DNA of 64,000 nt from Escherichia coli. Lineage in GTDB: Bacteria; Pseudomonadota; Gammaproteobacteria; Enterobacterales; Enterobacteriaceae. Position numbers and translations under genes: made by a program. Below, piece by piece: positions 44,609-49,641 of this stretch. Location: NCBI RefSeq assembly GCF_036507355.1, contig NZ_AP027877.1; one strand, given 5' to 3'. Each line of letters starts with the position of its first letter. Positions within the stretch are counted from its first letter, which is position 1. The notes beneath the pieces are model-generated. The model made no database searches, was not told the DNA's origin, and was given only the letters and a program-made list of their open reading frames with translations.

Positions 44609-44817
44609 TATCACTGGAATATATGATTTCACATTATATATTCCTAATATAAATATTATAATCTCTTTCCTATTAGATTAACGACTAATTAAAAATGTGT
44701 AAAGTCACATTCTTATAATTTTAAGATTATATTTAGCACTTATGGAGTGCAGTTCCTGTGCTATCTGGAATACAATATTAGACATTATTTCAGAATTAAA
44801 TTTTCACAGAGAAAAAC

Positions 44818-46998
44818 ATGCTGCGATGGATTCGCTATATAACGCTAATCGTTATTTCTGGTGCTGCTTATGCGGCACCGGAGATAAATATTAAGCAAAG
44901 CGAATCTTCATTACCTGATCTGGCAAGCGAAACGGCTCAACAAGAGGAACAAAGTAACAAAGGCAAATCTTTCAAGGAACGTGGTGCCAATTACGTTACC
45001 GAGTCCGCCCATCAGGGCTTTGAGAACCTGACTCCAGAAGCTCTTGAATCCCAGGCGAGAAGCTATCTGCAAGGGCAAATCACATCATCTGCACAGTCTT
45101 ATATTGAAGGTGCGCTTTCTCCTTATGGTAAAGTTCGCTCTAACCTTTCCATCGGTCAGGGTGGCGATCTGGACGGCAGTTCGATCGACTATTTTGTTCC
45201 CTGGTATGACAATCAGAGCACAGTCTATTTCAGTCAGTTTTCTGCGCAACGAAAAGAAGAACGCACGATAGGTAATATAGGTTTAGGTGTAAGACATAAT
45301 TTTGATAAATGGCTTCTGGGGGGGAATATATTTTATGATTATGATTTCACCCGCGGACATCGCCGTTTAGGCTTAGGAACAGAAGCCTGGACGGATTATT
45401 TAAAATTTTCTGGTAACTATTATCATCCGCTTTCAGAGTGGAAAGATTCAAAAGATTTTGATTTCTATTTAGAACGACCCGCACGTGGCTGGGATGTCCG
45501 GGCGGAAGCCTGGCTACCTTCTTATCCTCAGCTGGGGAGCAAAATTGTTTTCGAGCAATATTATGGTGACGAAGTGGCGCTCATCGGCACCGATAATTTA
45601 GAAAAAGATCCCTATGCAGTGACGCTTGGCGTGAACTATCAACCCGTTCCGTTACTGACGGTCGGGACGGATTATAAAGCAGGTACCGGAGATAACAGTG
45701 ATCTTAGCGTTAACGCCACGATTAACTATCAGTTCGGTGTTCCGCTAAAAGATCAACTGAATAGCGATAACGTCAAAGCAGCTCACTCGCTGATGGGCAG
45801 CCGCCATGACTTTGTTGAGCGCAATAATTTTATTGTTCTGGAATATAAAGAAAAAGATCCTCTCGACGTTACGTTGTGGCTGAAGGCTGACGCCACCAAT
45901 GAACACCCGGATTGTGTCATCAAGGACACCCCCGAAGCTGCGGTAGGGCTGGAAAAATGTAAGTGGACAATCAATGCGCTAATCAACCATCACTATAAGA
46001 TTGTCGTCGCCTCGTGGCAGGCGAAAAACAACGCTGCGCGTACGCTGGTGATGCCGGTTATCAAAGAAAATACCATCACGGAAGGGTACAACAACCACTG
46101 GAATCTGGTGCTGCCAGCCTGGCAGTACAGCTCTGATCCCGCCGAACAGGAAAAACTCAATACCTGGCGCGTGCGTCTGGCGCTGGAAGATGAAAAAGGC
46201 AACCGGCAAAACTCCGGCGTGGTGGAAATCACCGTTCAGCAGGATCGCAAAATTGAACTGATCGTCAACAACATTGCGGATGTGCCGGATGAAAACAATC
46301 ACAGTCATGAAGCCAGCGCTCAGGCGGATGGCGTCGATGGCGTGGTGATGGAGCTCGATGTTACCGATAGCTTTGGTGATGACACCGACCGTAACGGTAA
46401 TGCGCTGCCAGAAAATGGCCTGAGTCCGCAGCTTTACGATGCTCAGGATAAAAAAGTCACCCTCACCAATAAAGCCTGCTCGACCGATAACCCGTGCGTC
46501 TTTATCGCGAAGCAAGATAAAGAGAAAGGAACCGTCACCCTCTCCAGTACTTTGCCCGGCACCTTCCGCTGGAAAGCAAAGGCCGCGCCGTATGACGATA
46601 GTAACTATGTCGATGTGACTTTCCTCGGGGCGGGGGGCAATGACGTTAATGCCTTTATCTACCGTGTATCTGCGACTAAACCTGTCAACCTTATTGATAA
46701 CGACAAAGAACATTTGCCGGTGGATAACGCCTACCGTTTTGTCTTATGGCGTGATGCCAACAAAGATGGCGTTTTCCAGCAGTCGGAAAAACTGACGGAA
46801 GAAGAAATGGCGCAATACGACTACCAGTGGGAATTTACCGGACACAGCGTCAATGGCTACACCGGTGCGCAATCGAATACCAGTAATGAAGATATTGTCA
46901 TCCCTGCCACTAACGAGGAAGCGGTACAGAAATTTGGTGCCCAAAAAGAGGATGGCGTGCAGGGGTATGGATTACGTGTGGTTTACAGCAAGCACTAG
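44818..46998 (+). CDS. sinH: Intimin/invasin-family inverse autotransporter, SinH-like
   Basis: 726-aa ORF: signal peptide, inverse-autotransporter beta-barrel region, Ig-like passenger domains; position between yfgJ and xseA as in the Salmonella CS54 island. Confidence 0.8.
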   Translation: MLRWIRYITLIVISGAAYAAPEINIKQSESSLPDLASETAQQEEQSNKGKSFKERGANYVTESAHQGFENLTPEALESQARSYLQGQITSSAQSYIEGALSPYGKVRSNLSIGQGGDLDGSSIDYFVPWYDNQSTVYFSQFSAQRKEERTIGNIGLGVRHNFDKWLLGGNIFYDYDFTRGHRRLGLGTEAWTDYLKFSGNYYHPLSEWKDSKDFDFYLERPARGWDVRAEAWLPSYPQLGSKIVFEQYYGDEVALIGTDNLEKDPYAVTLGVNYQPVPLLTVGTDYKAGTGDNSDLSVNATINYQFGVPLKDQLNSDNVKAAHSLMGSRHDFVERNNFIVLEYKEKDPLDVTLWLKADATNEHPDCVIKDTPEAAVGLEKCKWTINALINHHYKIVVASWQAKNNAARTLVMPVIKENTITEGYNNHWNLVLPAWQYSSDPAEQEKLNTWRVRLALEDEKGNRQNSGVVEITVQQDRKIELIVNNIADVPDENNHSHEASAQADGVDGVVMELDVTDSFGDDTDRNGNALPENGLSPQLYDAQDKKVTLTNKACSTDNPCVFIAKQDKEKGTVTLSSTLPGTFRWKAKAAPYDDSNYVDVTFLGAGGNDVNAFIYRVSATKPVNLIDNDKEHLPVDNAYRFVLWRDANKDGVFQQSEKLTEEEMAQYDYQWEFTGHSVNGYTGAQSNTSNEDIVIPATNEEAVQKFGAQKEDGVQGYGLRVVYSKH

Positions 46999-47053
46999 AT
47001 CGGCGTAATGGCCGATCGGCCAGCCGCTGGAAATTAATCAAGGAGAGAGTTGA

Positions 47054-48019
47054 ATGAAACACTATTTAAAGCGACCGATGACTAAAGTCGTGCTGGCGCT
47101 GGCTTTAGCGGGATACTGCGCAGTGCCTGCTGCTATGGCAGAAGGGCAGGGCAACCTTAGGGCGGGTCAGTGGCAATCAGAGACAGAAACTACCGGAACG
47201 ATTCAGGGTACAGTGCCGTGGATCACTCGTAGCGCGACGGAAATCACCGATGCTGATAAATCTCATGTGTCCATTACCGTTGATCGTGGCGGACGTTCTG
47301 CTTCAACCGATGGCGAGAAGCAATTTCATATTGGTGACAAGTTAACTGCAAACTGGGCCATTGGCGATACCCAGGGCGACCTTGACGACAACAACACTGC
47401 AACCAAAGCGACGCTGCAATGGATGAGCTATAGCGACCAGGCGGGGGGTGATCCGAAAGAGATCGGTACAACGGGCAGTGACACCTATACCATTGCCGCA
47501 GCGGATGCCGATCGCTACATCGGTTTGAAAATTACCCCGACCACCACGACCGGTGATCCTAACGTTGCAGAACAACTGATCCTGTTAGACCTCTCCACCA
47601 ACGCGGGCGGTGGTTCTGACAGCGATGATATTCCGGAAGGTCCGGTATTTGACGATGCGGTTAAAGTTGTCATTCATGAGCAGGGTGTTAACACCAACCT
47701 GCTGGGCAAAGAAACCAAACTCAAAACCAATACCACTTATCAGGTCATGCTGTGGAAAGATAAAAACAGCAACGGCTCCTACGACACTGGCGAAGAGGTT
47801 ACCAGCCAGTACAACTACCGCTGGCGCTTTACCGGTACCAGTCTGCAACTGCGTACCAACGGCGGGATTGTCAACCCGAGCTACAACAACAGCGACCTGG
47901 TTATCCCAGTTACCAACGCCGAAGCGAAAACTGCGTTCGACTACAGCGAAGGTGGCCTCACCCTTGGCGCGGATGGTGTTCAGGGCTACGGTTTGTCCAT
48001 CGATTACCAGAGAAAATAA
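47054..48019 (+). CDS. sinI: SinI-like secreted protein; C-terminal domain paralogous to the SinH C-terminus
   Basis: 321-aa ORF with signal peptide and AGGAGAG SD; C-terminal ~100 aa align with the SinH C-terminus (ends GVQGYGLSIDYQRK versus GVQGYGLRVVYSKH). Confidence 0.65.
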   Translation: MKHYLKRPMTKVVLALALAGYCAVPAAMAEGQGNLRAGQWQSETETTGTIQGTVPWITRSATEITDADKSHVSITVDRGGRSASTDGEKQFHIGDKLTANWAIGDTQGDLDDNNTATKATLQWMSYSDQAGGDPKEIGTTGSDTYTIAAADADRYIGLKITPTTTTGDPNVAEQLILLDLSTNAGGGSDSDDIPEGPVFDDAVKVVIHEQGVNTNLLGKETKLKTNTTYQVMLWKDKNSNGSYDTGEEVTSQYNYRWRFTGTSLQLRTNGGIVNPSYNNSDLVIPVTNAEAKTAFDYSEGGLTLGADGVQGYGLSIDYQRK

Positions 48020-48176: not shown

Positions 48177-48190
48177 GAATAACGCGCACT

Positions 48191-49573
48191 TTGTCAACAA
48201 TCTGGTCATTTCAGCAAGGGAATGGTGCTTCTCCGCACACTTTGCTTACGGCGACGCTTGCACGTGAAACAGGGGTAAAGTCAGATCTCGACCTGATGTA
48301 TACCGTAGTAACAAGCCCGGATACGCCAAAAGCCAACTTCTGGGGACATATGCCAGAAACGGTAAGCTCAGCAGACGGAACGCAGTTTGAGCGGATGAAA
48401 CTGTGGGCCGAAATGGGGGCAACCAGCGGTGGCGGTTATTCGCTCACTAAAGTGAATATAAATAATGAAAGCTGGCCTGCGCCATATATTACCCAGCGAT
48501 ATTTGCCGGAGCTTATCCCTTGTGAAAGCGCACGATATCCATCATTGGATGAGCTTCAATCTTTATACAACCGCTATCCGAATGGCTCTATCGTCAATGA
48601 GATTGGCTGGCCGGTGAAACAGAATAGCTATGTGTGGTGGACAAATGCAGATTGTCCTGCGGGCGCGAATTCTTGTGAATCATTTGACTTCAACACAGGT
48701 CAACTTGTGACTGTATCTAAAAGCCGCGCCTTCCAGGCGTGCCTGGTGCACCCTCACTCAACGGTTTCTACCGTCACCCTGACGTCAACGGCATTTGACT
48801 CCACCGCTCAGGCGGCGAAAGTGAAGAAGGGCGAGGCAATGCCAGTCACCGTGACGGTGAAAGACAGCGCCGGGAAACCTGTGCCAAATGTGGCGTTTAC
48901 TCTGCGACGTGGTGATGCCTCTCCGCGTAATAGTGGGGCGACGCTATATGGCGATGTGGCGGCTATGGATGATATTACCATCCAGCCATCATCGGGGGCG
49001 GCTACCCTATTGGCGGTTAGTGGGAACGAGATCAGTGGCGTGACGGGGGCAGACGGCACGGCAAACTTTACTGTTCGTCAGGACAATACGCCGGGTTATA
49101 AAATGCCGCTGACGGTAACGCTGGATAAATACCCAACAGTGACTGCAATGATGGACACTATTTTCACCGTATTGACCAGCCCAAATGTATCTTCTGCTCA
49201 CTTCTGGGGGCATATGGCAGACACGGCAGTGGTGAATGGAAAAACATTACATCGACCGATACTGACAACTGAATTACCGTCCGGGGCCAATCCCGTATCC
49301 TCACCGATTATTAACTACGAAAACTGGGCTTCTGCGCATATTACTGATGCCAGCAAATGGGATATCTCGAAGCAGTGTGGAAATATAGAAAATGCACCGA
49401 CATACAATGAGTTAGAGACATTGTATACTGTGTTTAATTCGCTGGGATGGCCAGCTTCGCCAAGTTTCCCTTACTTGTCCTCTCAACGGTGTGGGATGGA
49501 CGAGAGCACTGGCACAGAGGATTGTAGTATCACGTTAGCCAATAAACCTGGTCTGGTTACTTGTTTCCAGTGA
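48191..49573 (+). pseudogene. Ig-like (Big) domain protein fragment with an internal ~150-aa domain duplication; no canonical start; likely remnant of a rat/invasin-like gene
   Basis: 460-codon frame opens at a TTG with no SD, first ATG is 35 codons in with no SD, no signal peptide; Big-like central domain flanked by two homologous Cys-containing domains (FWGHM motifs). Confidence 0.45.
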
Positions 49574-49641
49574 CGAGGGGAGCGCATTTGGCGTAGCCTG
49601 GGCGCTATTGCCTAATGCGATGCTGGCGCCTTTTTTCCGGC

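Follow-up and report, generated by a model that had tools for sequence, protein, structure and literature searches.

Gene content of the yfgJ-xseA interval

In the window analysed here, a 64,000-nt stretch of Escherichia coli contig NZ_AP027877.1 (GCF_036507355.1) to which all coordinates refer unless another locus is named, the open reading frame (ORF) map places approximately 5 kb of DNA between yfgJ and xseA, harbouring sinH, sinI and the remnant of a RatA-like adhesin gene (Table 1). The corresponding site of K-12 MG1655 is empty, the convergent genes yfgJ (b2510) and xseA (b2509) overlapping there by 4 bp. This confirmed the proposal of a first-pass annotation, made from the sequence alone, that a ~5 kb insert separates two genes which are adjacent in K-12; the 726-aa inverse autotransporter, the 321-aa secreted protein and the repetitive extragenic palindrome (REP) cluster that it had listed were likewise all found where it had placed them. 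Our interpretation, for which we estimate a probability of about 0.88, is that a sinH-sinI-ratA locus was recombined into a K-12-like chromosome, that its adhesin gene was truncated and that sinH and sinI are intact.

Table 1 Features of the sinH-sinI locus and its flanks (SNP, single-nucleotide polymorphism; BIME, bacterial interspersed mosaic element; L003 and L006, the corresponding loci of genome GPT24-02 and of Escherichia sp. E1V33)
Feature	Position	Length or extent	Strand	Basis
der	ends 44330			ORF map
Probable imported recombinant tract, from inside der to inside xseA, with the whole islet within	43865-50010			SNP mosaic
yfgJ, zinc-ribbon protein; left flank, divergent allele travelling with the islet	44393-44608		+	ORF map
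AT-rich ORF-free tract, presumed promoter/regulatory region	44609-44817	209 bp	+	24.4% GC
sinH, intact type Ve inverse autotransporter	44818-46998	726 aa	+	ORF map, NCBIfam, Pfam
sinI, barrel-less partner with signal peptide	47054-48019	321 aa	+	ORF map, NCBIfam
REP/BIME cluster 3' of sinI	48028-48229			REP consensus, inverted arms, fold
ORF with TTG start	48191-49573	460 codons	+	ORF map
Deletion junction, 5153 bp lost	48246-48248	3-bp microhomology TTA		alignment to L003/L006
RatA-like adhesin remnant	48248-49573	last 441 of 2139 codons	+	NCBIfam, Pfam, codon arithmetic
xseA; right flank, chimeric, 3' part of imported type and 5' part of K-12 type	49642-51018		-	SNP mosaic
guaB	beyond xseA			ORF map

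SinH and SinI

The NCBIfam equivalog model NF033423 recognised SinH over its entire length (1476.6 bits, with the cutoff at 999; all 730 model positions covered). As the protein also shares 99% identity with SinH proteins annotated as intact, we regard it as intact. Residues 65-337 matched the Pfam domain IAT_beta (PF11924; E = 1.2e-104, model positions 4-279 of 279), and the solved barrels of invasin (4e1t, E = 4e-71) and intimin (4e1s, E = 4e-63) could be aligned to residues 102-344. The order of the parts is inverted, with an N-terminal signal peptide and barrel followed by a passenger of ~390 residues (~340-726); inspected by eye, the N-terminal sequence MLRWIRYITLIVISGAAYA/AP looks like a Sec signal. 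Three Ig-like domains have been modelled for the SinH passenger in the literature, including a review (PMC12525524). The last domain (residues 601-726) is the most variable and most mosaic part of the protein, in agreement with published remarks on SinH domain 3; over these residues it is 75% identical to the SinH of WWCOL-236, the common-type strain for which segments were compared. The gene lies between yfgJ on its 5' side and sinI on its 3' side, an order also seen in Salmonella and 17 other loci. Protein identity amounts to 99% with the SinH of Escherichia sp. E1V33, 96% with E. whittamii, 93% with E. ruysiae, 85–87% with the large E. coli clusters and 72–80% with Salmonella (73% for the locus compared).

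SinI scored 420.6 bits against NCBIfam NF040711 (cutoff 165), with no IAT_beta domain, no other Pfam match and no PDB relative detected by sequence. Its C-terminal ~110 aa could be aligned to SinH residues 623-725 (38% identity over 112 aa, E = 4e-16), which indicates that the two C-termini are paralogous, a relationship that has already been published. Comparison of these C-terminal domains between loci revealed no concerted evolution or co-variation (identity 0.41 within and 0.42 between loci, p = 0.90). Identity of SinI is as low as 44% to its counterpart in the common-type strain WWCOL-236 but 67% to Salmonella SinI, so that two deep SinI types exist.

Truncation of the RatA-like adhesin gene

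The 460-codon ORF downstream of sinI had been described as an Ig-like fragment. Its fragmentary nature is well supported, as it reached 697 bits against NCBIfam PRK15316 (cutoff 3870) and covered only model positions 2242-2683 of 2683. The label Ig-like applies to just one of its three Pfam domains, BIg21 (ORF residues 214-328), the others being InvE_AD (residues 43-184 and 331-435), and the adhesin accounts for codons 20-460 alone, preceded by 19 formerly intergenic codons that are in frame by chance. The remnant thus retains InvE_AD/BIg21 modules and falls short of a full-length RatA-like protein.

The closest complete genome, E. coli GPT24-02 (L003), is 99.5% identical across the locus and contains an intact 2139-aa adhesin gene after sinI, ending 68 bp from xseA; the same intact arrangement is present in E1V33 (L006). 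The window matched L003 up to position 48248 (L003 position 4010) and again from position 48246 (L003 position 9164), the two loci being otherwise colinear. Alignment to E1V33 gave the same result, a 5153-bp deletion with a 3-bp TTA overlap. The left break falls in unique intergenic DNA 62 bp 5' of the start of the adhesin gene, where it cuts a small hairpin in its loop, and the right break in adhesin codon 1698, so that the gene lost 61 bp of upstream sequence including the ribosome-binding site (RBS) and a total of 1697 codons (79% of its length), among them the start codon and those of the signal peptide. What is left is a pseudogene without native start, RBS or signal peptide, unable to yield an exported product. 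When a 401-bp query across the junction was searched for, it was spanned by none of the 5426 complete E. coli genomes.

Repeat-rich genes of this kind are frequently mis-assembled from short reads, and the adhesin is indeed modular (~288 aa per module), with an internal 27-nt repeat at 864-nt spacing still visible in the remnant; a collapse of internal repeats during assembly might accordingly have shortened the gene artificially. Such a collapse would join homologous modules in register, whereas only 3 bp are common to both sides of the junction. Since the left breakpoint also falls in unique sequence inside the small hairpin and not in a repeat unit, we consider an assembly collapse highly improbable and favour a genuine deletion.

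Mosaic structure of the flanking genes

Over the core sequence that precedes the locus (35.9-42.8 kb), identity is 99.5% to K-12 and 98.0–98.1% to the human and canine clinical isolates listed, which carry the other sinH allele. Sliding identity to K-12 was 99.8–100% over positions 40501-43500 (not covered in E1V33) and 97.8% over 43501-44000 (95.6% to E1V33), dropping to 81.4% over 44001-44500 (99.2% to E1V33). Between 44501 and 50000, K-12 could not be aligned and identity to E1V33 was 97.4–99.8%, after which K-12 identity recovered to 96.8% over 50001-50500 (93.2% to E1V33) and 99.0% over 50501-51000 (88.8% to E1V33). Informative sites narrowed down both transitions: 26 consecutive K-12-type sites (43481-43859) give way to E1V33-type sites from 43865 on the left, and on the right an unbroken run of 41 E1V33-type sites (49726-50010) yields from 50020 to mainly K-12-type sites, interrupted by a small E1V33-type mosaic patch at 50233-50260. 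Taken together, SNP mosaic and sliding identity indicate homologous recombination as the route by which the locus entered a K-12-like chromosome, one crossover falling within der and the other within xseA. The tract is now ~6.15 kb long and would have measured ~11.3 kb before the deletion. In GPT24-02 the left crossover is situated ~300 bp further to the left, reflecting either independent imports or later recombination that trimmed the tract.

Compared with E. whittamii, the tract is 91–96% identical and about as divergent as its flanks; compared with a typical sinH-positive E. coli, it is 74–84% identical, versus 98–99% for the flanks. We infer that the transfer was probably directed into E. 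coli, from a donor close to the non-coli Escherichia sp. E1V33, a strain of which no mention was found in the literature. The divergent haplotype extends beyond the islet itself. YfgJ is 100% identical to that of E1V33 and 58–96% identical in other genera, its N-terminal half differing strongly from the K-12 allele, and DNA homology to K-12 resumes at 49724 rather than at 49642, leaving the last 27 codons of xseA (82 bp, 49642-49723) without K-12 DNA alignment. These codons and most of yfgJ are part of the same divergent haplotype. Between islet-bearing and empty haplotypes YfgJ is ~60–80% identical and Der 92–100%; judging by the divergence of YfgJ and the xseA end, both states of the site look old.

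An alternative would be that the locus was inherited vertically in this lineage and lost in K-12-like strains, with no horizontal transfer at all. In its favour, the locus occupies the same chromosomal site in several genera and may be regarded as ancestral at that position, neither mobility nor tRNA genes were found there, nor any repeats flanking it, and its composition is close to that of the core. This explanation is, however, already contradicted by the SNP mosaic, in which K-12 identity falls from 100% to 81% in der and recovers in xseA over the very stretch where E1V33 identity rises. It also conflicts with a flanking core closer to K-12 than to clinical isolates bearing the other allele, and with the different left crossover of the closest genome. 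We therefore regard purely vertical inheritance as extremely improbable and retain recombination into a K-12-like backbone.

Overall GC content was 48.8% in the islet and 51.8% in the window, and GC at third codon positions was 0.50 in sinH, 0.575 in sinI and 0.51 in the remnant, compared with 0.53–0.58 in core genes. With the exception of the AT-rich tract, composition of the islet is almost core-like; a compositional test for foreign origin was thus uninformative outside that tract, as foreign DNA of such composition would not be flagged by this measure alone. The first-pass annotation had called the locus horizontally acquired and had proposed GC and codon usage as evidence. Acquisition holds for this strain by virtue of the SNP mosaic, and the compositional part of the argument does not.

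Distribution and synteny

Among the 5426 complete E. coli genomes, sinH (at least 80% coverage) was present in 1740. The allele described here (at least 95% DNA identity) was limited to 48, the remaining sinH genomes being 78–81% identical. This allele was found in, among others, the O145:H28 Shiga-toxin lineage and isolates from cattle, pig and baboon. A published survey placed sinH chiefly in phylogroups B2, D, F and G and found it absent from A/B1 commensals.

The order der-yfgJ-sinH-sinI-adhesin-xseA-guaB was observed in E. whittamii, Pseudocitrobacter, several Citrobacter and Superficieibacter. E. albertii and Salmonella showed the left part of this order in the flanks compared, with Salmonella continuing into ratA and ratB; a scan of species-representative genomes gave no Salmonella locus, and the one used here (L027) was obtained through an exact-protein look-up. 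In every non-Salmonella relative with a flank reaching xseA, a single adhesin gene abuts xseA. No integrase or transposase was found among the ORFs of 44609-49641, no tRNA gene in the 64-kb window and no direct repeats at the islet boundaries. Occupation of the same site in at least five genera, combined with the absence of integrase, tRNA gene and flanking repeats, argues that this is an old syntenic variable locus moved by recombination in its flanks, and not a mobile island.

The view of the locus as a partly decayed island consequently requires amendment. Truncation of the rat-like gene was substantiated by the 5153-bp deletion. The absence of shdA and ratB, cited in the same context, does not represent decay, since a single adhesin gene is the norm outside Salmonella; only 68 bp separate the stop codon of the remnant (49573) from xseA (49642), with no room for either gene.

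The sinH-sinI-adhesin trio was also encountered at a different site in Leminorella grimontii (L020) and Citrobacter sp. R56 (L021), where no der, yfgJ or xseA lies within 10 kb and the three genes are together though relocated. SinH fragments 90–92% identical to the present protein turned up in a metagenome-assembled genome labelled Collinsella sp. (L010) and in a 426-bp contig of Rhizobium wenxiniae (L025); these almost certainly represent contamination in non-Enterobacteriaceae assemblies.

Comparison with known systems

In kind, the locus is already known: it corresponds, in Escherichia, to the sinH-sinI-ratA end of the CS54 island of Salmonella. The match to CS54 and to the sinH locus of extraintestinal pathogenic E. 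coli (ExPEC) put forward in the first-pass annotation was corroborated by NCBIfam models, gene order and sequence identities. In the Salmonella enterica island (shdA-ratB-ratA-sinI-sinH) the sinH-sinI-ratA arm is orthologous and, by yfgJ and der, occupies the same site. The Salmonella order der-yfgJ-sinH-sinI-ratA-ratB coincides with ours through the ratA position, and the spacer 5' of sinH is AT-rich there too. SinI is 67% identical to its CS54 counterpart and SinH 73%, as given above; the adhesin is 43–44% identical to RatA and is best described by the RatA-like model PRK15316. The full CS54 gene set is not present here, ratB and shdA both being absent, whereas the location agrees, the Salmonella locus compared (L027) showing the der-yfgJ-sinH side. 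On the other side we take the CS54 island to be bordered by xseA.

The ExPEC sinH-sinI locus (IatB, with EcSMS35_2660 downstream; the 'ila locus'; CFT073, UTI89, ST131) shares the site, gene order and NCBIfam families, and its beta-barrel is well conserved with that of the present SinH. Relative to the common ExPEC alleles, this allele is 78–81% identical in DNA and 85–87% in SinH protein. In WWCOL-236, the only common-type strain for which individual proteins were compared, the adhesin (55%), like SinI, is considerably more distant. Further differences are that the adhesin gene is cut to a stub here and that the backbone is K-12-like.

With intimin and invasin SinH shares a homologous barrel, placed before the passenger. 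The protein nevertheless reached only 248 bits against the intimin model (cutoff 1400), its passenger is much shorter, and no LysM, Big_1 or C-type-lectin domain was detected in it. ZirTSU of Salmonella follows the same operon logic, in which an IAT-barrel protein is followed by a barrel-less partner with a signal peptide that shares a passenger-type domain; the sequence relation is weak (SinI against the ZirU family, E = 1.3e-5, below the cutoff), and secretion of SinI through or with SinH is a proposal by analogy. No PADLOC anti-phage defence family was matched by SinH, SinI or the intact adhesin.

Proposed mechanism and function

Following the model of its homologues, SinH would be exported by Sec, its 12-stranded inverse autotransporter barrel inserted in the outer membrane through the action of the beta-barrel assembly machinery, and its C-terminal passenger threaded outwards and exposed on the surface as an adhesin. 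SinI may associate with SinH or be exported with its help, and the third gene would normally encode a giant repeat adhesin of ~2100 aa. Functions of SinH in display, adhesion, biofilm formation and colonisation are suggested by homologues that are 73–87% identical. A Salmonella sinH (sivH) mutant was reduced in gut colonisation (Kingsley 2003, as described in a paper citing it), and IatB promotes biofilm formation without its downstream partner. SinH has been reported to be displayed on the cell surface, to contribute to adhesion, autoaggregation and invasion (review PMC12525524), and to act as a protective antigen in mice (the same review among others). As for the history of the locus, an ~11-kb tract carrying all of it would have entered a K-12-like chromosome through crossovers in der and xseA, after which an illegitimate 5153-bp deletion presumably left an unexpressed 441-codon stub, with sinH and sinI staying intact, preceded by the conserved AT-rich region upstream of sinH.

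SinI and the RatA/RatB adhesins have in common a motif of ~21 aa directly after the signal peptide (52% identity, pairwise E = 0.001), the common form of which is LK-G-WQ, ~6 residues, T-x-x-I-x-G-T-x-P. It is found at residues 33-55 of SinI (window 47150-47218; LRAGQWQSETETTGTIQGTVP), at residues 26-47 of the intact adhesin (L003 4147-4212; LKGGQWQQTGISTDAINGTVP) and at the N-terminus of Salmonella RatB (L027 19900-19980; APWQEPDVSTAAINGTPP). Another form, AW...ST(A/G)EF(Q/N)GT(V/I)P, occurs in both proteins of loci that have the other SinI type (L002, L008, L017 and L018). Identity of the motif was 0.42 within loci compared with 0.37 between loci (p = 0.0003 in a permutation test that ignores the kinship of loci), and in the adhesin it falls within the N-terminal ~220 residues, which are unannotated in Pfam. 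The motif may serve for docking or export, or else form the first strand of a common fold.

These data bear on the possibility that SinH acts mainly as a translocator or platform, like ZirT, serving SinI and the Rat adhesin through the N-terminal motif. The ZirTSU analogy has been proposed in the literature and would agree with the weak ZirU-family match of SinI, with the presence of sinH, sinI and the adhesin gene together in every locus examined (including the relocated L020 and L021), with the shared motif itself and with the switching of motif type in both proteins of a locus. On the other hand, the activity of IatB in biofilm formation is independent of a downstream partner, and SinH itself has been described as a displayed, protective antigen. 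Because related loci are not independent in the permutation test, the switch may amount to one or two events, and the motif may simply be the first strand of a shared fold, a SinI model predicting a strand at residues 47-53. A platform role leaves a role as adhesin possible, and as the main function of SinH we consider it rather unlikely. The more specific proposal, under which the motif would signal docking or export and SinH would thereby become an outer-membrane platform for several substrates, in a ZirTSU-like 'two-partner' use of a type Ve barrel, appears to us distinctly doubtful. If the platform hypothesis were true, the strain would constitute a natural knockout in which SinH and SinI are kept and the large cargo is lost.

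Several considerations weigh against the overall interpretation of a recombined, truncated locus with intact sinH and sinI. K-12 and E1V33 are proxies only for the recipient and donor, and the direction of transfer is deduced from them. The deletion may in principle be an assembly error. No Pfam domain was matched by SinH residues 338-726, and the notion of an Ig-like passenger is taken from the literature; an AlphaFold2 model of SinH built from a 14-sequence alignment reached a predicted local distance difference test (pLDDT) score of 46 and was not used for fold search. A promoter scan of the AT-rich tract returned no more sites than expected by chance, and the expression and localisation of the products of this allele are argued from homologues.

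SinH is under development as an antigen for vaccines against ExPEC and also serves to mark extraintestinal virulence. The present allele is ~86% identical to vaccine-type proteins and resides in a K-12-like backbone, where surveys report absence. Its occurrence in such a backbone and in O145:H28 implies that expectations regarding typing and cross-protection should consider allele type. The case documents both the spread of the locus via homologous recombination in der and xseA and its decay. What is added is strain-level detail (a rare allele of possibly cryptic-clade type, mapped crossovers and an exactly defined private deletion), leaving the known system unchanged.

Intergenic elements and other observations

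The AT-rich tract at 44609-44817, noted in the first-pass annotation, stands out clearly from the window average in GC content (Table 1). Spacers 5' of sinH were 199–342 bp long with 22–34.5% GC in 19 of 19 related loci, including Salmonella. Two weak sigma-70-like matches were located in the tract (44628-44657 and 44704-44733), and a promoter and terminator scan gave sites no more numerous than chance would. The 55-nt gap between sinH and sinI contains no terminator-like site, which is compatible with co-transcription, as reported for the two genes (review PMC12525524).

Downstream of sinI, a canonical REP element at 48141-48174 (- strand) showed 0 mismatches to the consensus, with 0 matches expected by chance, and a second REP-like palindrome was identified at ~48077-48107. 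Almost all E. coli genomes contain several sites that match the 150-bp segment 48054-48204. The region contains 41-nt inverted arms and its predicted fold is unusually stable (z = -7.5); an Rfam match to ES036 (CssrF) at 48098-48140 (- strand) falls inside the REP element. Two hairpin copies, a 20-nt repeat at 174-bp spacing (48033-48052 and 48207-48226), bracket the cluster. The spacer between sinI and the adhesin gene is ~290 bp in E1V33-type loci (L003, L006) and ~116 bp in E. whittamii (L005) and E. coli E69 (L024), lengths that are consistent with a ~174-bp insertion of the REP cluster into a hairpin 3' of sinI.

Two further differences from K-12 were observed elsewhere in the window. A 768-bp copy of insertion sequence IS1 (insA and insB, 55470-56237, - strand) is positioned just 5' of yfgH, where K-12 has none; the same element interrupts sinH in E. 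coli E69 (L024). In the stretch 25692-26678 (- strand), where K-12 identity falls to 86–96%, two full-length ryfA copies (25692-25996 and 26374-26678) enclose an IS128 RNA (26132-26342), in place of the single ryfA/timP unit of K-12.

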